From NCBI RefSeq assembly GCF_033153115.1, contig NW_026889763.1, positions 19,344,001 to 19,408,000 on the forward strand: a stretch of 64,000 nucleotides of DNA, written 5' to 3'. The DNA comes from Saccostrea echinata. Its lineage: Eukaryota. The notes under the pieces are model-generated. The model was not told the origin of the DNA and did not search any database. It saw only the letters and a program-made list of their open reading frames with translations. Shown here piece after piece: positions 26,289 through 52,735 of this stretch (within the stretch, counting starts at the first letter, position 1; the number at the start of each line of letters is the position of its first letter). A program made the position numbers and the translations under genes.

Positions 26289-27429
26289 ATGGCTGAGAGC
26301 AGTGGTTTTTACATGACATTACCCAGTGATAGCTCCGTGCAATCTTTTCCGGGGAATACGACCGCTCAATTTAAAACTTTATTACCACATTCTGTGGATT
26401 TAACGGATGGTCAATGGGAAGTAGCATTAACCGAAATGATCTATCCTTGTAGTATAGAAAATATGTCATGATGAATCTTATATCGATGTGTGTATAGTGG
26501 AAAAAGTTCCACCTTTTTTTAAAGACGTTTCACCAACAGAGAAACTGGATCTCGAGGACCCCGATAAGTACCAGTGGGGACGGTTTCAATTATTGAAAAG
26601 TACTCCCATCACTTTTCAACAAACCCAGCTTTTAGTACATTGGAGTAAAGCTTATTGGTTAAGCGGTACTTATGATCCTAGAGAGAAATTGAATTTGTAT
26701 CGACTTCGATTTAGATCGGGACCTTATCCCAACCCTACAGGTATCCTGGCAGAAATCAATGAAGGTTTAGTACAGACCATGAAAAAAATCTGGAAAAAGT
26801 ATCACAAATGGACCAAGAAAAAGAAACCCACAGATCAAGGAAGTGTGATGGTGGTGGACAGTGATGATGATGAGGTGTATGGGGATTTAAAACAGAGCTT
26901 AAAGACAGTGATACAAGACCTGAAAGAAGAAGAAGAAAAACCCTCAAAAATTGAGATGAAATTTAATTATCGGGAGGATTTCAATCGAGTGAATTATGTC
27001 ACTCATTTACGTCAAATTCCCATCTTTGTACGTCTTCCCTTAAGTCTGGCTTATAAAATAGGATTTCATGGTTCTAAATTAGTCCCGGAAAATTGGACAG
27101 AAGACACGACCAAATGGATTAACATCAGTTATCTGGCTCCAGACACTGTAGATTTATATCGAAATTTAAAATCCATGTATGTGTATTGTGATCTGATTCA
27201 ACCCCAGACCGTAGTATCGAATGCCTTGAAATTATTAAGAGTGGTCCCTTGTCAATTTGAACAGAAAGACAGTCAATATAAATGGGAACCCATACGTGCG
27301 GAATATCTCCCTTTGAGTAAAAAACATTTTGATACCATTGAGATACACATCATGACACCTTTAGGAAAACCCATGCCCTTTTTAAGTGGAAAAACTCTAG
27401 TCAAACTTCATTTTAGAAAAGTGTACTGA
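26289..27429 (+). pseudogene. Minor capsid (penton-like, PX) protein
   Basis: N-terminal FYMTLPSDSS..FPGNT..WEVALTE and C-terminal MYVYCDLI..LLRVVP..TIEIHI..VKLHF. Stop at 26469. Confidence 0.85.
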
Positions 27430-27557
27430 GATGAGTGTACAATTATTGTGTTACATCCTATTGGGAGTCATGGCTTGTCTATATTGCATTCACCCCTAAG
27501 GGTATAAAAGGAAGTCCCCAGAATGCAGGAAAGTCAGTTTTAAGAACAGTTATCACC

Positions 27558-28076
27558 ATGCAGTATCATCCAGGAATATTAAGACAGAGAGGACACGGTT
27601 GGACTTATCATAAAGGTTTATTAAGACAAAAAGGACACGGGTTTGGTCTTTTAGCTCCAGTGTTAAAATTAGCAGCTCCAGTAGTCAGTAATCTATTAGG
27701 TGGAATATTTGGAGGGGGTCAACAGCAACCACCCCCACCCCCACCACCAGCTTATTATTATCCACCCCAAAACTATGAAAGAGGGGAAGGATTTTTTACG
27801 GATTTACTGAAAACGGGAGCTAAACATGCCTTGACCGCTGCTGCTAGAACGGGGTAAGACGTGTTAGAAAATAAGAGATCTTTAAAAGACGCTGTCAAAA
27901 CTCACGGAGTACAAGCCCTGAAAAATACTTCGGGAATGGTGAAACAAAGAATGAATCTAGGAGGTAGTAAGAAAAAAAGAAAACAGACAGAAAGAGTTCT
28001 GTTGGCTAAGGAGGTCCTAAGAGAAAAAGAAAAAATCAAGGAGGCAATATTCCCAAGAAGAAAACACGGTCTTTGA
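27558..28076 (+). pseudogene. Basic core/membrane-active precursor-like protein with repeated (Q/E)-(R/K)-G-x-G motifs
   Basis: QRGHG, QKGHG and ERGEG, two of them followed by amphipathic helices. Premature TAA at 27855; lies directly upstream of the major capsid gene. Confidence 0.65.
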
Positions 28077-28114
28077 CTGACACTATGAAAAATCAATCTT
28101 AGTAGACATACATC

Positions 28115-29520
28115 ATGTTACAGCCCGATTCCTGTGCCTGTGGGATGGACAATTTTCAATTGTTCCAAGTCCCTCCGACTAATATTGCTTTAGAAGACTC
28201 CAAATGGGAAGAATATTACCCTATTTCTAGTACTTTAGATTCAGAGACAGCTCCGATTGAATTTGAAATTAAAGGACAAGGAGATCAATATCTGGATTTA
28301 TCTCAAGCTTATCTTCAAATGGTATGTCAATTTGTCCAAAATGATGGAAGTAATCTGGCTGGAGATCCTGCTAAAACAGCCCCAGTGAATAATATCTTAC
28401 ATTCCTTGTTTACGGAAATTGATGTCAGTCTCATTGGAAAAATAATCACTCCAGGAACCGATACTTATCCTTACAAAGTTTATCTGGAGAAATTACTGTC
28501 TTACAAACCCAGAACTTTAGCCACACAAATGAAAGCTTGTAGTCTATGGGAAAAAGATACGGCAGGACATATGGATGAAAGGGGGTTAGCAGCTCTTGAT
28601 GTGGCTGCTAATCAGACATTTAATGTATCCAACGCTAATACTGTGACCATTAACAAACCCATCATCCCAGCGTACCCAGCCAATTCTAAAAACGAAGGAT
28701 ACAGAAAACGTCATGAAGCCATAAATGCTAGTAAGAAAATTACTTTGTTGGATCGTTTACATCTGGATTTGTTTCAACAAGATCGATTTCTACCGAATAG
28801 AATCGACGTCCGTTTGAGATTTAATCGAGCTAGACCTGATTTCTACATGATGACGGCTCAAGCCAATACGGGAAAAGTCAAAATATTAAGTATTGTCTTG
28901 TGGGTGAGAAAAGTGAAACCTTCCCCTACTTTAATGAATCAGATCAATGAAAGTTTGAATACTCACAGAGCCAAATATCCATTAAGAAGAGTCGAAGTCA
29001 AAACTTTTACCATACCTACAGGAACTCAATCTAAGATTACCGATCATCTGTTTCAAGGCCAGATGCCTAAACGTCTCATTTTAGGGTTTGTGGAGAATGC
29101 TGCTTTTAATGGAGATAAAACTAAAAATCCCTTAATTTTCAAAATTTTGGGATTAAAAAATTAGATGTTAGTATCAATGGAGAGACCATGATGACTCGTT
29201 GTTTCGAACCTAATTTTAATGAAGATTTATATCTGAGATCTTATCTGAGTATGTATCAAGCTTTGGGAAAATTAGGAGAAGATTGGGCTCCGGACATCAC
29301 CTTAGAAGAGTATAAAAACGGATACACTTTATGGGGCTGGGATTTCACTAAAGATCAAGAAGCCTAATCGGATAAATTCCATCTCATAGAAACAGGAAAT
29401 TTAAGAGTAGAAGTCCAATTTACTGCCAATACGGTTACCACTTTAAATTGTGTGGTGTATACAGAATTTGATAACATCTTAGAAATCAACAAACACAGAG
29501 AAGTGAGCATTGATTATTAA
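28115..29520 (+). pseudogene. Major capsid protein (double jelly-roll, PY)
   Basis: LFQVPPTN, PIEFEI..YLDLS, PVNNILHSLF, YPYKVYLEKLL, LHLDLFQQDRFL, AKYPLRRVEVK, GQMPKRLILGFV. Frameshift at about 29130, stop at 29365, C-terminus [17 protein letters not shown]. Confidence 0.92.
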
Positions 29521-30023
29521 TGGATATAGGACAGTTGAGAGAAGTGTTATCTAGAGAATAAAAGAGTTCGTTTGGTGGAGTGTATCCTTTAGATTTATTA
29601 CCAGATCAATTAAAATTTGGAGAAAAAGCCATTGTAGTCAATACAGATCCTCAAGATCAACCTGGAGAACATTGGGTGTGTTTATATGTAAGCAGTCCAG
29701 TGGTAGAATATTTTGATTCCTATGGATTTCCTCCTTTAAAGAAAGAAATTCAAGACCTTATCCATCGTCATGGTCATCAATGGATTTATAATCCGTATCG
29801 ATATCAAGATTGGAATACTGATGTGTGTGGACAATATTGTGTGTATTATTTACATCAAAGACATATGAATAAAATCAAAGCAGATGAATGGTTATTTCCC
29901 TTTGAGCATAATACAGCTTTACAAAGAGATCATTATGTAGCTCAATGGTTTAAAGACACTTATCATAAAAGACCAACAGGTCATGGACAAACTTGTCAAT
30001 GTTTCTATCAAAATGTATTGTAA
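29520..30023 (+). pseudogene. Adenain/Ulp1-like cysteine maturation protease
   Basis: VNTD..PGEHWV, EYFDSYG and YQ....DVCGQYC (His-Asp-Gln-Cys). ATG 29520 is followed by an in-frame TAA at 29559. Confidence 0.92.
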
Positions 30024-30442
30024 AAATTGTTATTGTTGTTTTTATTGTTGTTTGTTTGTTGTTCTCAAAATAAAAAAAAAGAAAAAAATAATACTTGCTG
30101 TTATTCTTTCAATACGTAGAGGACTGATGACGTCACAATGAGTAGCATTTTTTCTACTGACTTGCTGTCTGTTATAAGTGTTCTATGTGATAATAAAAAT
30201 CATTATGTGTTAATAATATCTTCATAAAAATAAGAGTTCTATGTTAATAAAATGATTATGTGTAAAATAAAAAAATGAAAATTAAATTAAAAAAAAAAAT
30301 TAAAATATCTACAAAAAAAAAAAATAACAGTGACCTGGTGTTATTAGACGTTTCTATAACCAGATGTTTTTTAAAAGGTATCTTTTCGAATCATTGAAGT
30401 GGCCCTTAAAAGGACCGTTGTTGTTTTTTTTTTCTTTAGGGT

Positions 30443-31098
30443 TTACTCCCTGGGACGTCGGCCTCGCCCTCGACCCGCAAACTCCCTTCTCTCGGAGAGA
30501 GGCCTCCTAGGTGGAGGAGGAGGTGGTGATGTGGGAGGGGCAGGAACCGGTTCAGGCGCACCATACCTGCACAGGGGGCAGCCCTCATTCCGGTCAATAC
30601 GTCTGGCCGCACACAGGTAGCAGGCAGGCCTCTGTAAACATCTGCCGCACATGAAATTGGACTGCTCATCCTGACATAAACACAAGACACAGTATCCCTC
30701 CTCCACAGGCGCTTGTATCCCCCACACGGGGATACAACCCTGAAAGACCACACGGTCCTGCTCGGGTGGTGGTGCTGCGTTCAGGAGGCGGTGGACCCTT
30801 GCCGATGGTGACGAAGGGGGGGGGATTCCGGGGAATCCGCCAGGTCGAAATTCCGTCCCTCCTCTTCTGGCCGCGGATGGTATATTGTCCTGTAATCTGG
30901 TGCTGCTGGTCGTGTTCTACTATATGGGCTGTGCCTTGATCTTCTTCGGGTGGTGAAGCCGGCAAGATCAGGGACGCGAATTCTTCCTATATTCAGGACC
31001 GCATACTCTTGCCCGGTGTTTTGGTTCCTTACAATTAACTGACAGATCACCTCCACGCCTGGTTCGATGAAAATATTTTCGTGGAATAAAGAAGCCAT
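30443..31098 (-). pseudogene. GC-rich RING-finger-like accessory protein (about 218 aa if the G-run 30816-30824 gains 1 nt)
   Basis: CVLC..CGRC..CYLC..CPLCR (8 Cys) with Arg-rich and Ser/Pro-rich segments. TATA + TCATT module at 31164/31130. Confidence 0.65.
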
Positions 31099-32600
31099 CG
31101 TCGTATCGCTGAATCAGATAGCTAACGAATGACAGTTAACAGCTGACAAGCGTCGGTATTTATACACACAGCGCGAGCCGAAAAGAGAGCACCCAAAAGC
31201 CCGGATGACGAACAGCTCAAAAAATCATGGAGAATTCAAATTTGTGTTATTCTGTGTTTGTGAATACATCTATTGGAGTAAATAAGTTATTATGGAATGA
31301 TATATACTTTCAAACCCTCCAGTGAAAGAATGAAGGTAAGTTTTGAGGATGATTTCACAGTATTATTCATACATGACATTCCTCCGTTGTTTAGAACAGG
31401 CTCATTCATGTCGAACCGAAGGGCTAACCTTGACTGACCTGAACACATAAAATAAGAAGTTAAGCTATTTTAAAAGTGTGACACAAAGAAAACTTAATGT
31501 ATATAATAAGATTGAACCTAAGGAAAAGTGTTGATATGGTTTTTAAATCAAAAGAATCGTTGCAAGTGGAGAAATAAACTTAGCGTCGGTTTAGGGATAA
31601 AGACAAGGGAGGTCAAAGGACAGCCATTTTCAGAAAATCATTGTATAGACTTGTATAGAGCCTATAAGATTTTTTTTGCAATCCTGATCTTTTATGATAA
31701 AAATTTTGAAATGAATACAATCGGAAACTTATAAAAATCATTTGTATCTACTTTATTTCCAATGGGAAAGTCTACATTTTAAAAGAAAAACCCTATTCAT
31801 ACACGCAGTGTTGGTACAACAGACACCGTGTTACACACATACATTTGATTTTTGTATTGTAACCTTATGAAAATAGAATTGTGAGATCAATACAATCGGA
31901 AACTTATAAAAATCATTTGTATCTACTTTATTTCCAATGGGAAAGTGTAGATTTTATAAAAAGACCAAAAAAATCTCAGCGTCTTAAAAAGGACACAAGA
32001 TGGCGTCATACACTAATTACAATGACGTATTGTAATTCTTTTATTGCATTATTTCTTGAAGACTAACAATTGTTCAAACTGCCAAATTCTCCTTTGAAAT
32101 CTTAATCGATCCGCTACTAGAGCCATCCATTTCACTTTTCCGATCATCGGGGGTGGTAAATCGTAATTTTTTTTATTGAAACTCGTATTAAAAGTCACAC
32201 GCAAAGTTTGATTTTAGATATTAAACTATCATAGCTTTTTTAAGAGTAGGCTTAAGTTAAGTTTTTTTTTGCACAAGGTGTTTTTAAGACTCTTGAATCG
32301 GTGCCAAGATTAGGTACATGACCTGTGCAGGTGTTTTAAGAATCAGATCTCGTGCTCAATATATATTATTATAGTAACAAAAAAAAGTGAAAAAAAAAAT
32401 AGTTTTTCAGACTTGAATCGATGCCAAGATTAAGTACATGATCTGTGCAGGTGTTTTAAGAATCTCATCTCGTGCTTTTTTCTTTTTTTTTTTGCACGAG
32501 ACCCTTAAGTAAAAAAGGTATATAAACTCAGAGTTGAGTCATTTATAGCATCAGTCTTTCAGTGAATACTTGCAGAGAATAGATAGGAAGGACACAAGTA

Positions 32601-33556
32601 ATGATGAATCCTAACGATGTTTCAGAGCAGAATCTTCCAGAACTGATCAGCAGGGAAGATTTTGAATGGATAGTGAATGAGATTAAAGATCCCATTGGAT
32701 TAGATTTGGACATGTATCACATTCCAGAACCCATCACCAAGGAAGATATTTCAGCTGAGAATATTCCAGAACTAATGAGCAAGGAAGATTTGGAATGGAT
32801 AGTGAATGATGTTAAAGATTCTATTGGATTGGATTTAGGGGTCTACCTCATTCCTGAACCCATGACTAAAGAAGAGATGAGGAAAAAAGGTATGTAAACA
32901 CAAGAGTATATAGCATCTGTCTTGAGTTAGTATTTTTTTTTTGGCAGAGAATAGATATAGGACACATGCAATAATAAATCTTCATTATGTTTTCAGATGA
33001 GAATCTTCCAGAACTAATAAGCAAGGAAGATTTAGAATGGTTATTGAATGACGTTAAAGATTCTATTGGATTGGATTTAGGGGTCTACCTCATTCCTGAA
33101 CCCATGACCAAAGAAGAGATGAGGAAAAAAGGTATGTAAACACAAGAGTTCATAGCATCTGTCTTGAGTTAGTATTTTTTTTGGCAGAGAATAGATATAG
33201 GACACATGCAATAATAAATCTTCATTATGTTTTCAGATGAGACTCTTCCAGAACTAATAAGCAAGGAAGATTTAGAATGGTTATTGAATGACGTTAAAGA
33301 AGATCCCATTGAATTGGATTTGGAAATGTATAACATTCCAGAACCCATGACCAAAACAGATATGAGGATCTTGAGGAGTCAAATGAATGACATTGCTAAT
33401 TTACTGGAGGATTTTAAAACAAATAAGGACACCGCAATGTGTTTATTACAGGAAAGATTATCCAGATTAGAAGGACAAGTCACCAACCATGATAGAAAAG
33501 AACATGAGAGGCGGTTCTTACCAGAAAAGAAAAGACTCACCAGCCCTCAAAAATGA
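32601..33556 (+). CDS. Spliced acidic-repeat accessory protein (exons 32601-32889, 32997-33131, 33237-33556; 247 aa; may extend to 33800 via a frameshift)
   Basis: Two AG|GTATGT...TTTTCAG| introns (107 and 105 nt), both phase 1 and frame-restoring. Four LPELISKEDLEW..DLxxYxIPEPMTKE repeats. Confidence 0.75.
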
Positions 33557-34102
33557 GTGTATAGAGGATCAACACTTAGTGAAAACTCAGGACAAAAAGA
33601 CCCAGAAACAAAAAAAGACTGAGGAACAAAAAAAGACTCCTTTTGTGATGTTATATGATGTAGAAAAGACTCTTAACACAGTGAGTAACAAAAGAAAACT
33701 TCAGAATAGTGATATAAATGACAAACTGAAAGCGAAAATCCAAAGAAAAGATCTAAAGGATAAAGTGAAAATCCAGAAAAAAATGGACACTTTCTGGTGA
33801 ATTAGTGTTGTGATTATTAGTGTTTTAATATTTTTTTATGAATCATCTATAAATTTTTGAAATCCTTCTCATGTTTTTTTTTTGGTTTTGTACACTCTAG
33901 TGTGTGTAAAAACCTTGGTTTTCAGAAAATAGAGAAACGGTTGTGAATGACATGACGTCATAATGCATAAGTCGGTGTGAATTTGAATCCCTGCCAAGAT
34001 TATGTGTCTGTATGACTGGTGTTTTTTAAAGAATCTCATTATAGTAACAAATAGATAGCTGTGTCGAAAAAAACAACCTCTATATAAGGCTATCAAAGGA
34101 TA

Positions 34103-34359
34103 AGGGTCTATCTATTTTTTTTTTTAGAATTTTAAAATCTATTTTTTAGACCCATCCCAAGTCTATTTTTAGACCCATCCCAGGTCTAGCTATTTTTAGA
34201 CCCATCCCAGGTCTAGCTATTTTTAGACCCATTCCAGGTCTATTTTTAGACCCATCCCAGGTCTATTATTAGACCCATCCCCAGGTCTATTTTTAGAACT
34301 CTGGGGGGGGGGGGAGAGTGCACTCAGTTGACCCGCCCAACTAAACCCTTTATACTACT
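34103..34359 (-). repeat. Polinton right TIR
   Basis: Reverse complement of the left TIR, with about 6 copies of a 24-28-bp unit TCTAAAAATAGACCTGGGATGGG. Confidence 0.95.
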
Positions 34360-45847: not shown

Positions 45848-47008
45848 ATGCCACGCAAGAAGAACTGGCGGGTTGGATTGGCCAAGAAGGGGAACCGGAG
45901 TCGTGCCAGCAGTGACAATAGACTCGTGGATACTAGCCACATAAAAAATAGTACAAAGGACCCAACGATTGACGAAACATTTGACAGACCTTTGAGACTC
46001 GTGGATACTAGCCACGTAAAAAATAGTACTAAGGACCGGGGGGATACTGCCTCCTTAAAAAGAGTACTAGATTTGCCTTCGGGCGCCAGTAACATTGCAA
46101 ATTTGCCTTCGGGCACCAGAAACATCACAAATTTGCCTTCGGGCGCCAGTAACATTGCCAGTTTGCCTTCGGGCACTAGATTATTTGGAACAATTAATCA
46201 AGCAAATAATTTATTTCCAACTTTTTCTCGAGGAGTTCAGTGCACATGTAATGCTTTGATGTCTATCATTTTGCAAAATGCATCCACTACATCAGAACTT
46301 GATGAGGTGCTCTTTGCTGGGGATGATTTATTTAGACTCAGAATTGCAGAATTACAATCAAGTGTTCAATTTGTTTCAAAAATGCTACAATTCCAAGAAC
46401 TTCCCAAGTCTGTTTATGTGCATGACAACCAGTATGAAATAAGCTATTTTGAACAGATCTATGGAACAGTGACTCATATAGATTGGGATCAGTCATGTCA
46501 AAATAATAATTTGAAGGAAGGTATTGAGCTGCTCTTTACAAGATACAATCAAGGATTAATTATAGTTGGAGGAATTTGTTCTGGAATATATGTGGATGAC
46601 AAGAGGTGTCCTGTATTTTTTGATTCACATTCCCATGGAAAAGATGGTCTTTCATGTGCAGATGGCAAGGCTGTAAAAATCACTTTTGGGGATATTGATC
46701 AACTTGTGGACTACATGTTTGCATTTGATCAAAGTTGTAATATATCATTGATAAGCCAGTTTGAGATTCAACCAGTGTCTGTAAAACGAAAAACAAATGT
46801 GTCCATTTGTGAGAGACTTTCCTTAATTGACAAGTACTTTGAGTTCCAAAATAACATGTCTAGATTATGTACTATTTCTGAATCATCACACGGAAATCGA
46901 AATGAATATATGAGAAACTACATGCAAAAAAGGAGGGAAAACTCACTTCCAGAAAAAGTGTCAGAGAAAATCCTGAAACAAAGCTCAAGGAAAGAGAACG
47001 TACATTAA
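45848..47008 (+). pseudogene. Helentron N-terminal part: herpesvirus-tegument-like deubiquitinase (VTD/peptidase C76 type)
   Basis: FSRGVQCTCNAL (catalytic Cys), LDEVLFAGD and FFDSHSHG (Asp-x-His). Splice acceptor TTTTGCAG at 45837 precedes ATG 45848. Frameshift at about 46940 to the Rep-Hel ORF. Confidence 0.8.
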
Positions 47009-47370
47009 AAAGCATGAACAAGGCAAGAAAAAATAAAGAGTTTAAAGAGAAAGAACTTGCTTCCAAAAAAAGTGTCAGAGAAAATCCTGAAACAAAGCTC
47101 AAGGAAAGAGAACGTACATTAAAAAGTATGAACAAGGCAAGACAAAGTAAAGAATTTAAAGAGAAAGAACTTGCTTCCAAAAAAAGTGTCAGAGAAAATC
47201 CTGAAACAAAGCTCAAGGAAAGAGAACGTACATTAAAAAGTATGAACAAGGCAAGACAAAGTGAAGAATTTAAAGAGAAAGAACTTACTTCCAAAAAAAG
47301 TGTCAGAGAAAATCCTGAAACAAAGCTCAAGGAAAGAGAACGTACATTAAAAAGTATGAACAAGGCAAGG
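46945..47370 (+). repeat. 114-bp (38-aa) coding tandem repeat, about 3.7 copies
   Basis: MNKARxxxEFKEKELxSKKSVRENPETKLKERERTLKS repeated. Confidence 0.95.
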
Positions 47371-50300
47371 CTAAATACAGGATTTTGTTTAAAAGAAAGA
47401 GAAGCAAAGAAAATGAAAAGAGACAATGTGCAGCAGCTGGAGAAAGAACGGCTTTGTAAACAACAAAGTAGAAGAAATTATAGAGAAAAAGAAAGAGAGA
47501 GTGAAAGAGTTTCTAAAGCTAAAAGGAGGCTTGATGCAGAATTTACAGACCATGAAAACAAATTATTAAAGAAAAGGTGTCATGGTAATTCGTTGGAAGA
47601 TTGTATAGAGAAATTTCATGAAGAAGTGAAAATTGGTCCAATTTATGTGTGTACATGTTGTCATCAAACTTGGTTTTGGAAAAGTGTTGTGAAGCTAGAT
47701 ACAACTAATCTTAGTGCTAGTAGTAAAAGTATTTGTACTGGATTAAGATCTGTGGATGGTATAGAATGGTTATGTATAACCTGCTGTTCAGCTCTGAAGG
47801 ATGAGAAAATTCCAAAACTTTCTGTTAGAAATGGAATGAAATGGCCTGACCAACCAGATGCTTTGAAATTACACCCACTGGAAGAGAGGTTGATATCTCA
47901 ACGCATACCATTCATGCAAATAAGAGAATTACCTAGAGGAGGTCAAATGTCTGTCAAAGGAAATGTTGTAAATGTCCCAGTTGATATTCAGCCAACTGTA
48001 AATGCCCTTCCACGACAAATAGATGAGCATGTGACTATAGCTGTAAAATTAAAGAAAAGATTATCTCACAAATCGGCATGCTTCACAGAAAATGTTCGTC
48101 CAAATATGGTGATGAGTGCTTTACAGTGGCTTATGAAAAATAGTGAGTTGTATAAAGATTCTGGTTTAGTGATAGACCATTCTTGGAGAGATGAAATTGA
48201 AAAAAGTAAAGAAGAAACAGTACAAGAACTGATAGGTAGTTCAAATGAAAGCGATGATCGTGAATCTGAAGGAAATGATGATGATTTTTGTGAAGTTTCT
48301 TCAAATGATTGTATTCAAGGCAATTCTGATACACTTGTTGATGAAGCAGATATTGATACAAATAAACTCTATGTGTTTGCCCCAGGAGAAAACCAAAAAC
48401 CAATAAGTTTATTTACAGATAAAGATGCAGAATATCTCTGTTTTCCAACAATATTTTGTGGTCACCGCAGAATTGAAAGTGAGGAAAGAGAAGTTCCAGT
48501 ACACTACAGTGATATCGCAAAATGGGAGTTGCGCAGTGTTGATAGACGAGCAGCACAATCTGTACCTAACATCTTTTTTAAATTGAAGAAAATTCAAATT
48601 AAACAGGTTAGTGATAAAGTTAACTTGGCACTTAGAAGATGTAAATCAAAGGGCAAGAAAATCACTGCAGAACAAGTTTTAAATCCAGCAAATGCAGAAA
48701 AAATTGTAAGATTAAATGAAGGGTATTATATATTCAGAACACTTCGAAATTCTCCTGCATATCTTTCATCTAAAAAGAAGGATGTATTTGCCATGATAAG
48801 ACAGTTAGGTCTCCCAACCTGGTTTATTTCTCTGTCATCAGCCGATACCAGATGGCAAGATCTGCTTAAAACATTGGCAACACTAGATGGAAAAACCCTG
48901 TCACAAGAAGAACTAGAGGCCTTGAATTGGAATGAAAAATCAAAACTAGTTAAACAAGATCCAGTAACATGTGCAAGATTCTTTGACAACAGAGTTCAAC
49001 TCTTCATCAATACTGTTCTTAAAAGTCCTCACAATCCTTTAGGTGTTGTCACTGATGTGTTTCGAAGAGTAGAATTCCAAAACAGAGGTTCACCACATAT
49101 TCATATGCTGGTATGGACAAGTGATGCTCCAAAGCACAAAGAAAATAGTAATGAGGAAATTGAAGCTTATGTAGATAAGTATGTCACATGTAGTTTGCAG
49201 GAAAATAATCCTCAAATGGAGCAGCTTGTAGAGCTTCAAGTACATAAACACTCAAAGACTTGCAAAAAAGGCGGTAGATCTGTATGCAGATTTGGATTTC
49301 CATTGCCACCTTTGCCCAAAACCATGCTTCTTGAACCATTGGATGTTGATGTTGAGCATTATAGAAAGATATATTCTGATATTCAGAAGAAAATGAATGA
49401 TTACAAAGATGGTTGCAGTTTAGACTATGAGTCCTTCTTAGAGACTATTGTAGAAATGTGTGAGGATGAGTATATAAAATGTATTCGAGCTTCCTTGAAA
49501 GGTCCCAAAATATTTCTGAAGAGAAGTCCATCTGAGATGAGAGTGAATTACTATAATTCATCAGTGTTAAAGGCCTGGAATGCTAACTTAGATATTCAGT
49601 TTGTACTTGATCCTTATGCATGTGCCACATACATTGTTGCTTATATCAGCAAATCTCAGAGAGGAATCAGTGCAATGCTTGATAAGGCATCTCAAGAAGC
49701 TGCAGAGGGAAATATGGATCTTAAGCGTCAAGTTCGACATATTGGAAACAAGTTCTTAAACTTTGTTGAGGTCAGTGCACAAGAGGCAAGTTACTTGATC
49801 CTTCAGATGCCACTTACACAAGCTACTAGAGAGGTTGTTTTTATAAATACTTCACCACCTGAAGACAGAGTTTTCTTACTCAAACATCAAGATGAATTGA
49901 ATGAGTTACCCAAGGATTCAACTGATATTAAGGCAGACAGTATGATACAAAGATATGCAAGAAGACCAAAACAGCTAGAAAATTGGTGTTTAGCTGATGT
50001 TGTTTCCGAATTGGAAGTAACTTTCCCCAAAGAAATCAGAAAAGATTTACAAGAGGAAGTGAATGATGATAACCCAGAAGATATTTCTGAAGAAACTTTT
50101 TTTACTGATCAGGATGTTTTAGTTCATTTGAAAAATGGGATTAAGATCAGAAGACGAAAAAACAAACGAGTTATTAGATATGTAGGGTACAGCCAAAAAA
50201 CAAATTCTGAACAGTATTACAGAGAAAGAATTCTTCTCTTTCTGCCTTGGAGAAATGAGAATGCTGACCTACTTGGTAGTCATCAAACTTATGAACAGCA

Positions 50301-52735
50301 CTACAGGCAAAAAGCATGTATAATACAAGTTAAGCAAAAGCAGTATGAGCATTTTGTGGATGAATTAGAACAAGCTCGACTTCAAGCTGAAGAAGATCTT
50401 GATAATATGGAGACAGTAGCACCAAATACAGAACATGCTGAGGCAGAGGATGCAGAGATAAGTTCTGAACCATCTGAGGAATTTGTTCATTATGATCCTG
50501 ATACAGTTCAACACAGAGATTTTGATATTGGTCCAGAACTTGGCTTGTCTTCAAAAGTATCTGAAACAGAAATGAGTGCTGTCCGCATTCCTGATGAGCA
50601 GTATTATAAACTTTTGCAATCCCTGAATACTAAGCAGAGAGAATTTTACAATCATGTAACAAACTGGATTCAAATCAGAGATGAACCATTATATGCTTTT
50701 CTAACTGGTGGAGCAGGTGCAGGAAAATCAGTGGTTATTGATGCAATTTTTCAAACATTACACAGAAAACTGTACTCAAAAGAAGGTGAAAACCCAGATG
50801 ATATTAGAATATTACTTTGTGCTCACACTGGAAAAGCTGCATATAACATCAAAGGGACTACTATTGCATCAGCATTTCACAGGAAAATGTATCAAACCCA
50901 GCAACACATGAGTGAAGATGAATTGAACTCATTTAGGACAAAGTACCGTAATTTGTCAGTTGTGATAATTGATGAAATTTCAATGGTAGGAAATAATATG
51001 CTGACATTTATAAATGACAGACTTCAGCAACTTACTGGTAGAAAACAAGATTTTGGTGGTATTAGCATCATAGCTGTTGGTGATTTGTATCAGTTACCAC
51101 CTGTTGGAGACAAATGGATTTTCAAAGACCTTTCTAATCCTGGTCAGAGTTTAGCAAAAAATTTATGGCATGAACATTTTCATATGCATGAACTAACTGA
51201 AATTATGAGACAAAAGGATGACCTCAGATTTGCAGAAATGTTGAATAGACTCCGTGAAAACAAGATGACAGATGAAGATAAAGAACTCATTTATCAACAC
51301 ATCATCAGGCAAGACATGCAAGTCTATCCTAAGGAGGCACCTCATCTGTTTATTGAGAACAAGTTTGTTGATTGTTTTAATAACAATCTAATAGAAAACC
51401 TTTCAACAAATAAAGTAAATGTAAGAGCAGACACAGACGTTTTATCACAGACAAAACTCTCTGCATCAGTGAAATTAAAACTAGTTCAAAACTTGCCTGA
51501 AAACCCAGCATCTACTGGACAATTAAGAACTAACTTGGTTATTGCTGTAGATATGCTCTATGACATATCCGTAAATCTTGATGTTACAGATGGATTGACA
51601 AATGGTGCTTCATGTGTTGTGAAATACATTGAATATCAACAATCGCTATTAAGACCAGCTATAGTATGGGTTCTGTTTGCTGACTCGAACATTGGTATTT
51701 CAAGAAGACATCAATACAGCCATTTGTTTAGCACAAATGTTAATACTACATGGACTCCCATATTTGAAGCAAAAAGAACATTTGTGTATAACAGGAAGAC
51801 CTATGAGAGAATTCAGTTTCCACTCCAACCAGCTGCTGGAAAGACAATCCATAAAGCACAAGGAGCAACTCTTTCAAGTGCAGTCATCAGCTTAGCACAG
51901 ACAAAGCAGCGCAAAATTCCTCATATACATTATGTTGCACTCTCTAGAGTAAGGTCACTTGATGGACTATTCATTCTGGATTTCAATGAAAAAAGTCTTT
52001 CTAAAGATGAAAATGTTGATAAAGAGATGGAAAGATTGAGAGAAAATAGATTGCAGCTCTCATACACACCACTTTACTCTGTATGTAAAGATATTAAATT
52101 TTTGTTCAACAATGCAAGATCTCTACACAAACACTACCTTGATATGAAATCAGAACCAAGTGTTTTAGCTGCAGATGTTATTGGTATAGCTGAATCTTGG
52201 CTTTGTGAATTAGATTCTGATAAATACTTTACTTTGGAGGGTTTTACAATGTTCAGAAATGATGCAAATTCTTCCCAGACCAGATCACATCATGGCATTG
52301 TCATATATCTGAGGAATCAATTACAGTGTGTGACATACAACTCTTTTACTACCAAATCCGTTGAATTTTCCATAATTTCCATTATGGCGTCCAATACTCC
52401 AATACAGTGTGTAGTTTTATATAAGCAACCTTCTTGTACTCTTCAACTTTTTTACGATACGTTGAAGAACAGATTGCTTCCATTTGTTGACAAAGATAAA
52501 AAAAATTGTGATTATGGGAGATTGTAATTTGGATTTGAATACTGGTCAGTATCAGCATTTCCTAAACTTTATGAGAGAAAACTTTGGTTGTGAGCAAGTT
52601 ATAAACAAGATAACCACAAAAAACAAGACACGGTTAGACCTAATATTTACCAACTTTACTGATATACAAACAGATGTTCTCCAGGCTTATTGGTCTGACC
52701 ATAATATAATTTATTGTGCTGCAAATATTACTTAA
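47014..52735 (+). CDS. Helentron Rep (HUH) - PIF1-family helicase - AP-like endonuclease polyprotein; the endonuclease is frameshifted in the A-run at about 52500
   Basis: VEFQNRGSPHIHML, YACATYIVAYISK, GGAGAGKS, IIDEISMV, GDLYQLPPV, TIHKAQGAT and YVALSRV. Endonuclease NARSL, IAESW, IMGDCN, LDLIF and SDH. Confidence 0.95.

Follow-up and report, generated by a model that had tools for sequence, protein, structure and literature searches.

The window analysed here is a stretch of 64,000 nucleotides (nt) from the mollusc Saccostrea echinata (contig NW_026889763.1, positions 19,344,001 to 19,408,000). It contains a Polinton/Maverick element at 16370..34359, and between 30443 and 31164 on the minus strand of this element lies a short gene broken into two reading frames, referred to below as the RING gene after the zinc finger that it encodes. 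Taken as a whole, the balance of the evidence tips slightly towards the view that this gene encodes an S-phase-coupled, self-sparing nuclear RING E3 ubiquitin ligase of an active Polinton family.

The split gene and its copies

The block at 30443-31164 has a G+C content of 0.55 compared with a window mean of 0.35 (SD 0.04, windows of 720 nt), and the next-highest block elsewhere reaches 0.44, in agreement with the GC-rich antisense block described in an original prediction made from the letters of the window alone. The minus strand carries two frames here, one of 105 amino acids (aa) from an ATG (30781..31098) and one of 157 aa from stop to stop (30443..30916), and both hold the peptides quoted in that prediction. 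The first frame, the 5' piece of the gene, encodes a beta-rich N-terminal domain, an Arg-rich stretch ending in PY and a Pro/Ser linker, and the second, the 3' piece, encodes the RING domain, a Pro-rich stretch and an RGRG tail; neither contains Lys. The N-terminal domain of about 47 aa (30958..31098, minus strand) is conserved in the alignment with a ratio of nonsynonymous to synonymous substitution rates (dN/dS) of 0.12, is predicted to form a beta-hairpin in a low-confidence model, and is a candidate substrate-binding module. In the 3' piece, the folded domain (30548..30757, minus strand) combines a PxW motif, an extra N-terminal strand and the all-Cys RING, the core of which (30566..30691, minus strand) reads C-x2-C-x10-C-x2-C-x5-C-x2-C-x10-C-P-x-C-R.

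A TATA box, TATAAATA, starts at 31164 (31157..31164, minus strand) and is followed at a fixed distance by the initiator-like TCATTCG (31126..31132, minus strand, with its A at 31130). The spacing of the two is constant in 16 of the 17 open-frame copies scored. Both elements lie where they had been predicted, with the correction that they are not peculiar to this gene: other genes of the element are preceded by a TATA box and initiator in the same arrangement. An initiator-like element, TCATTCA, is also found in the host H3 and H1 genes. A histone-specific promoter was considered and rejected, as the layout is shared with other element genes and there is no extended match to host histone promoters.

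A search of the genome with the DNA listed about 40 related places, of which 30 loci were fetched. In 20 of these 30 sister loci, a single open frame runs from the N-terminal motif through the RING, and the eight-Cys finger is conserved; the two frames of the window are thus one gene, as had been proposed. The window copy is broken at a run of nine G (30816..30824) that is a recurrent break site: among the ten broken copies of the 30, seven shift at the run, two shift elsewhere and one has an in-frame stop, so that the run is, as judged from these sequences, a slippage hot spot. The proposal of a break by one homopolymer slip was right about the place, and incomplete in that there is other damage. 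The core genes of the window element are in pieces, with 11 copy-specific indel clusters in the core-gene stretches that sister loci cover, and the window copy of the RING gene is the sole exception among 38 distinct cores at one predicted E2-contact position.

It could be argued that the break is a homopolymer error of the assembly, or else a programmed slip by which the gene could yield either a short or a long product. The prominence of the G run among broken copies is in keeping with this, as is the fact that five of the 11 indel clusters lie near runs of at least five bases, compared with a background of 19%. A programmed shift is needless, however, when 20 of the 30 copies are in frame, and the six clusters away from runs, together with an independent damaging substitution, fit real decay instead. 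An error or a programmed slip is regarded as somewhat unlikely. Real decay is favoured because of the exceptional residue at the E2-contact position, and by this sequence comparison the window copy is probably non-functional.

The family is larger than the fetched loci. The pattern C-x2-C-x2-R-P-[AT]-C was found at 141 places in the genome compared with one for a reversed control, and a further 20 loci were picked for distinct motif sequences and fetched with 6 kb each, in which 12 of them have Polinton core genes. A profile search of 1.84 billion representatives gave seven matches, six of them true relatives (P0003 was dropped as a chance repeat protein), and two more searches added three damaged relatives and three relatives of a paralog described below. 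The two named database relatives are Saccostrea proteins; one of the two, P0002, closely resembles one subfamily (L089) and may not be independent of the genome studied (G000). A single-sequence homology search gave none among 652 candidates, and neither the eight pattern matches in viral contigs nor the 598 in metagenome contigs were confirmed. The N-terminal domain had no significant match in the PDB (best E 0.63) and belongs to no known family. No paper describing the RING family was found in the literature searched, which did not extend to subscription papers, Repbase entries and figure-only supplements; term look-ups in PMC11071296, PMC11131425 and PMC11296320 returned nothing relevant.

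Members share one layout. The beta-rich N-terminal domain (47 aa) is followed by an Arg-rich stretch, in many cases with PY at its end, and then by a Pro/Ser linker; the PxW motif comes next, ahead of the finger, and the protein closes with a tail that is either Pro-rich or of the RGRG type. For the RING finger, the 29 pairs out of 78 that could be used, the others being too similar or saturated, give a dN/dS of 0.065; for the N-terminal domain, with 25 usable pairs out of 78, the value is 0.116. These sequence comparisons showed that the family is under purifying selection, and that the RING gene is a real gene is close to certain. It should be kept in mind that the copies are kin, and counts of copies are counts of non-independent events.

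The zinc finger, its surface and its origin

The finger has eight zinc-ligand positions in four pairs and ends in C-P-x-C; in 36 aligned rows seven of the Cys are invariant and the last is at least 90% conserved. The original prediction of an all-Cys RING-like protein is upheld by the fold model and the matches described here, with the correction that a ninth Cys, the third in order, is replaced in nine of the 38 distinct cores and is not a ligand. All 22 sequence matches in the PDB are RING proteins, led by Mdm2/Mdm4 (best E 2.6e-5), and zf-RING_2 was matched by 36 of 36 members at E≤10 (best 6e-6). AlphaFold, run on the 36 family rows, gave a model with a predicted local distance difference test (pLDDT) score of 91 that has a helix and two strands, one central and one additional at the N-terminus. 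The lists returned by Foldseek (PDB and viral models) and by VIA (48,161 chains) were filled with RING/U-box domains, so that the RING fold that had been proposed was recovered by both modelling and fold search, though by matches that are individually weak. The models thus make it very probable that the domain is a RING fold in an all-Cys variant, for which the fold matches suggest a cross-brace zinc geometry.

Several observations weigh against this assignment. No Foldseek match reached E≤0.001, the template-modelling (TM) scores were about 0.5, and the best VIA match had a Z of 4.5 with a root-mean-square deviation of 2.9 over 62 residues. The window RING scores below the Pfam cut-off (19.6 bits vs 27) and the Atlas scores are <0.9. 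The ligand spacing is non-canonical (C3-x2-C4-x5-C5) and there is no His ligand, so that the C3HC4/C3H2C3 pattern is not matched. The full-length model is poor, with a pLDDT of 38.

In RING domains, a Pro and a linchpin Arg take part in the contact with E2~ubiquitin. Both positions are occupied in the family: among the 38 distinct cores, Pro follows C7 and Arg follows C8 in all 38, C1+2 is Leu or Val in 38, and C6+4 is hydrophobic in 37. The C1+2 position aligns with I440 of Mdm2, mutation of which is reported to block binding of E2~Ub (PMC7190642), and the role of L466 of the mouse protein as an E2~ubiquitin-contact position is taken from PMC9119546. An intact E2-binding face is therefore predicted, and this E3-type surface lends support to the E3 reading of the original prediction. 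It is probable that the protein is an active E3 ubiquitin ligase.

The absence of lysine points in the same direction. In 26 open frames with 5,976 residues there are 11 Lys compared with 794 Arg, and 21 of the 26 have no Lys at all, like the two halves in the window; lysine makes up 7.7% of residues in other genes of the element. A shuffle of the base composition gives an expectation of 5.8 Lys in each copy (P(0)=0.0005), and when this DNA is read in its other frames, 2-10 Lys are found. Four of the six distant database relatives also lack Lys, one has two and one has 16, all of these beyond about residue 190. Although the copies are related, synonymous sites between subfamilies are saturated, and the absence is therefore maintained by selection. 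Lysine deserts have been reported to limit the self-destruction and turnover of the E3s San1 and Slx5 (PMC10665810). These ligases likewise combine a RING with lysine-free disordered regions, according to that paper; they are cellular and unrelated in sequence, whereas here the entire protein including the RING is free of lysine. By this analogy, the absence supports an active ligase without proving it.

Alternatively, the domain could be a non-catalytic hybrid of ZZ and RING zinc fingers that binds a host protein or soaks up E2s without ubiquitin transfer, in which case the loss of Lys would only shield it from host ligases. The first six Cys are indeed spaced in a ZZ-like manner, the fold scores to RINGs are modest, and ten of the 12 PDB rows for the paralog are ZZ-bearing, though at insignificant E-values (0.11-5.7) and with a label that is presumed in part. 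ZZ fingers have H-x3-H as their last ligands; the family finger ends in C-P-x-C instead, continued as C-P-x-C-R in 38 of the 38 cores, the E2 face is conserved, and no ZZ domain is present among the 50 VIA rows listed. A hybrid of this kind is unlikely, and the RING ligase remains the preferred reading.

With respect to origin, the original prediction had taken the high GC content as the mark of an acquired island, and this did not hold. At four-fold sites, the window halves have a G+C content of about 0.52; the range is 0.35-0.61 among 26 sister frames and 0.29-0.60 among 13 other genes of the element, and GC as a sign of acquisition was rejected on this ground; as far as the sequences tell, the island is due mainly to amino-acid content. 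Host histone genes also have a G+C content of 0.52-0.61, which may be a coincidence. Inside the same Polintons lie two paralogs that share the finger and the PxW motif with the RING gene (HH probability 97.5) and are its closest relatives; for this reason the RING gene is, by sequence comparison, an accessory gene native to the Polinton family; its place outside the core Polinton set is as the prediction had it. The nearer paralog is 93-97% identical in most of the copies listed. The paralogs occur in tandem (L111:327-770 and L122:694-1944), have a zinc-ribbon-like N-terminal part, contain lysine and are absent from the window element. A tree of 46 columns was built from 41 rows (13 family cores, 12 paralogs and 16 of the 37 host RINGs); in it, a branch with 99/99 support separates the family together with the paralogs from the rest.

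The leading position of Mdm2/Mdm4 in the searches raises the question of whether the RING was captured from Mdm2/MdmX and targets the p53 pathway of the host, pairing with or replacing host Mdm2. Mdm2/Mdm4 entries take the first 16 places among the PDB sequence matches, no gap is present over 42-43 residues in the four alignments displayed, and Mdm2 is first in the Foldseek list. The Mdm2/MdmX RING (C2H2C4; PDB 2VJE and 7AHY) resembles the family finger in its loop lengths over 42 residues, in the position of the third ligand, in the E2-contact positions and in the C-P-x-C-R end, and host Mdm2 (L088) is the sole one of the 37 host RINGs with both loop lengths of the family (20 and 10). Another host locus, L084, was tried as host Mdm2 and rejected. 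In the approximately unbiased test (p-AU) on the 46-column tree, which gave values of 0.41 and 0.27, a sister relation to Mdm2 was neither demonstrated nor rejected (0.41). However, two other host RINGs (L036 and L065) score equal to or above Mdm2 against the family, and Mdm2 is the best pairwise match for one of the 38 members and tied with L036 for one more; L036 is presumably Neuralized-like. The His ligands are absent, with Cys at the H452 position and His at the H457 position in two of the 38 cores, and the Gly that matches G453 of Mdm2 is present in only 15 of 38. The family finger differs further in being all-Cys and in its extra N-terminal strand with PxW, and the proteins have no p53-binding, acidic or RanBP2 domain and no aromatic C-terminal tail, which is needed for the activity of the Mdm2 dimer (PMC7190642). 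Together with the 99/99 grouping with the Polinton paralogs, this makes a captured Mdm2 domain acting on the p53 pathway highly improbable.

Kinship to ICP0 or IE2, the viral RING proteins named in the original prediction, is not supported, as the finger has no His ligand and the ICP0 RING reaches an E-value of only 0.003. The RINGs of ICP0, IE2/PE38 and the ostreid herpesvirus proteins are of the C3HC4 type. The viral RING E3s of herpesviruses (ICP0), baculoviruses (IE2/PE38) and ostreid herpesvirus are nevertheless comparable in that a small RING is embedded in a disordered protein rich in Pro and Arg, the gene for which has a TATA promoter to itself, and they give weak fold matches. They differ in showing no homology outside the finger; here a Polinton of 18 kb carries the gene, the 3' end of which is of the histone type. 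We regard the family as a novel form of viral RING protein, unusual in its freedom from lysine and in the histone-type signals at the end of its mRNA.

Signals at the 3' end of the gene

A stem-loop of the histone-mRNA type lies 26 nt after the stop codon of the RING gene (30401..30416, minus strand; Rfam Histone3 29.5 bits, E 6e-5, and pattern scan), and it is the sole one in the 64-kb window. It is followed, at the 13-nt distance that host histone genes also have, by the histone downstream element GAAAAGATACC (30377..30387, minus strand), with 15 of 15 bases identical to host H2A/H4 elements. The corresponding host element, GAAAAGAT, was found 13 nt after the stem in 13 of the 13 histone genes read in three repeat units. 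The stem-loop was detected by pattern in 44 of 50 family loci, in many of them in tandem, compared with 0.003 matches in the shuffled element, and the Rfam gathering score was reached or passed in 13 of 20 sister loci. Of the 69 family hairpins, 41 have the downstream element at 13-14 nt, and the commonest one has the same sequence as the hairpin of a host H2B gene. The third stem pair is compensatory, as C-G is found in 36 and T-A in 26 of the commonest hairpins among the 69. In full-length copies the first hairpin mostly starts 25-40 nt after the stop, compared with 28-52 nt in the host; a distance of 25-60 nt between stop and hairpin has been described as critical (10.64898/2026.10.14.759114).

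These features are shared with the 3' end of replication-dependent histone mRNAs (Rfam RF00032, SLBP, U7 small nuclear ribonucleoprotein (snRNP)), namely the stem-loop, the downstream element, the spacing, the distance from the stop and the intronless gene. The differences are that the signals are here on a non-histone gene of a mobile element, often in tandem, and that the processing itself is predicted. A histone-type 3' processing of the RING mRNA is quite probable on these sequence signals. Some findings speak against it: the window hairpin is under the Rfam gathering score (29.5 vs 34 bits) and has a G-U pair, and the hairpin is absent in six of the 50 loci. The signal is also not exclusive to the gene, as of eight other places examined, it follows family genes at three, an unrelated open reading frame (ORF) at three, another Polinton ORF at one and no ORF at one.

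Another explanation is that the main role of the hairpins is that of RNA decoys: they would titrate SLBP and so reduce the supply of histones, and the mRNA would be polyadenylated as usual. This would account for the two to four tandem hairpins of many copies, for the 24 of the 69 family hairpins without a downstream element of their own and for the AATAAA that lies within 250 nt of the stop in many copies, the last two of which also count against processing. The downstream element is kept at host spacing in single-hairpin copies, however, and the distance of the first hairpin from the stop is close to that in the host and to the reported range (10.64898/2026.10.14.759114, as above). A decoy role is thus very unlikely, and processing in the manner of histone mRNAs is the better account.

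At three loci (L156, L157 and L163), the hairpin and downstream element were observed 9 nt after the stop of the unrelated repeated ORF of about 175 aa, which we take to encode an SGNH hydrolase. One element (L159) has a second histone hairpin after the region of a gene with two CCHC zinc knuckles. In its variant with a TTTC loop, the stem-loop pattern was found at no host gene.

The element and a proposed role

The Polinton/Maverick element (16370..34359; 17,990 bp) is bounded by long terminal inverted repeats (TIRs) and a 6-bp target-site duplication, and its pPolB and integrase were identified by Pfam matches. ATPase, capsids and a protease complete the set by which such elements are recognized, these three labels being presumed from position and motifs. 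The RING gene is on the strand opposite to the core genes, overlaps no gene and is convergent with the protease gene (29520..30023, plus strand; no Pfam match), which we assume from motifs and position to be adenain-like and which served as the divergence control.

When the window element is compared with sisters from its own subfamily, almost every bin on the protease/capsid side shows a DNA identity of 91-100%; the values are 85-95% just upstream of the RING gene and 64-85% within it. At four-fold sites, the identity is 0.87-1.00 for the protease and 0.18-0.92 for the RING gene (36 pairs from the same loci, without the L089 subfamily), and among pairs with a protease identity of 0.96-1.00 that of the RING gene spans 0.20 to 0.92. 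This pattern suggests that old alleles of the RING gene have been exchanged between elements, which fits better than a uniformly faster clock. Such an exchange would be expected of a gene engaged in conflict with its host.

Upstream of the RING gene, the window holds a remnant (32052..32198, minus strand; tblastn) of a gene that has a GADD34/ICP34.5-like PP1-binding region in sister elements (PF10488 E 2.8e-5, 24.3 bits vs a cut-off of 26.1). In the sisters, this PP1-binding gene, just under the cut-off, lies upstream of the RING gene (L110:3895-4392, L114 and L115), and a 137-aa ORF in another frame overlaps it. An intronless IAP gene (BIR and RING, above the Pfam cut-offs) was found between pPolB and ATPase in sister elements (L061:1636-2190 on the minus strand, L062 and L068-L070); its site corresponds to window 21518-21567, where the gene is absent, and an IAP-type match lies within 25 kb of 22 of the 40 RING-gene places. 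One subfamily has a Macro-domain-like ORF (Pfam E of 0.2 only) between protease and RING gene (L113:4221-4718 and L111:4158-4643). A gene with two CCHC zinc knuckles is found near the right TIR (L110:2755-3450, L114 and L115), and window 32583-33800 is a degenerate, tandemly repeated remnant of it.

Some further observations were made. The RING gene occurs in two near-identical inverted copies 11 kb apart (G000:C8:745189 and 756353; L011 and L012). In L105 it adjoins pieces of ATPase and pPolB, in what is probably an internally deleted element, and a tRNA-like match is present in L105 and L108. Outside the Polinton, two ORFs lie one after the other at window 45848-52527 (plus strand): the first, of 386 aa, matches Herpes_teg_N (E 1.8e-8), and the second, of 1,837 aa, has what we take to be Helitron Rep/helicase motifs.

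Adintoviruses have been reported to carry Oncoids together with homologues of IAP and Bcl2 (PMC8502044). As defined in that paper, Oncoids share paired CXXC motifs with the RING gene, and IAP homologues occur both there and in the sister elements; the RING gene differs in lying beyond the protease and not upstream of PolB. Identity with an Oncoid was rejected, as an LxCxE or CR1 motif was present in none of 23 proteins. The word RING does not occur in the main text and one supplement of PMC8502044, the supplementary figures of which may annotate such genes.

The following course of events is proposed. RNA polymerase II would transcribe the RING gene from the TATA box and initiator, and SLBP and U7 snRNP would cut the pre-mRNA after the stem-loop to give a non-polyadenylated mRNA that accumulates during DNA replication and is removed afterwards. 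The Arg-rich stretch may carry the protein to the nucleus. There, the RING would recruit host E2~ubiquitin while the N-terminal domain or the linker holds a host protein; the likeliest candidate is a factor by which the DNA of the element is restricted or chromatinised. A ligase without lysine would spare itself. That the target is a host restriction or chromatin factor is plausible, though we would not expect it with confidence. Short motifs that we take to be a SUMO-interacting motif, a PY-type nuclear localization signal (PY-NLS) and LxxLL, the last confined to one subfamily, are not put forward as established. The genes for IAP, PP1-binding and Macro-like proteins in sister elements fit a role in counter-defence.

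A broader proposal is made more tentatively, in that an animal Polinton would express a wholly lysine-free, new E3 with an all-Cys finger by the histone-mRNA pathway, S-phase-gated and non-polyadenylated, with ancient alleles shuffled as at an arms-race locus and a counter-defence kit (IAP, PP1-binding, Macro-like) of a sort otherwise characteristic of large DNA viruses. The presence of an E3-like gene that is under selection throughout the family, next to genes for IAP and PP1-binding proteins, would indicate that animal Polintons behave as host-manipulating viruses. The domain of 70 residues is tractable for assay, and a protein with no lysine at all offers a clean natural test of the lysine-desert idea. 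If the reading is true, the RING gene would be a non-histone, viral client of SLBP and U7, a pathway thought to be reserved for histones, its mRNA would be hidden from poly(A) sequencing, and the substrate of the ligase would name a restriction factor of molluscs.

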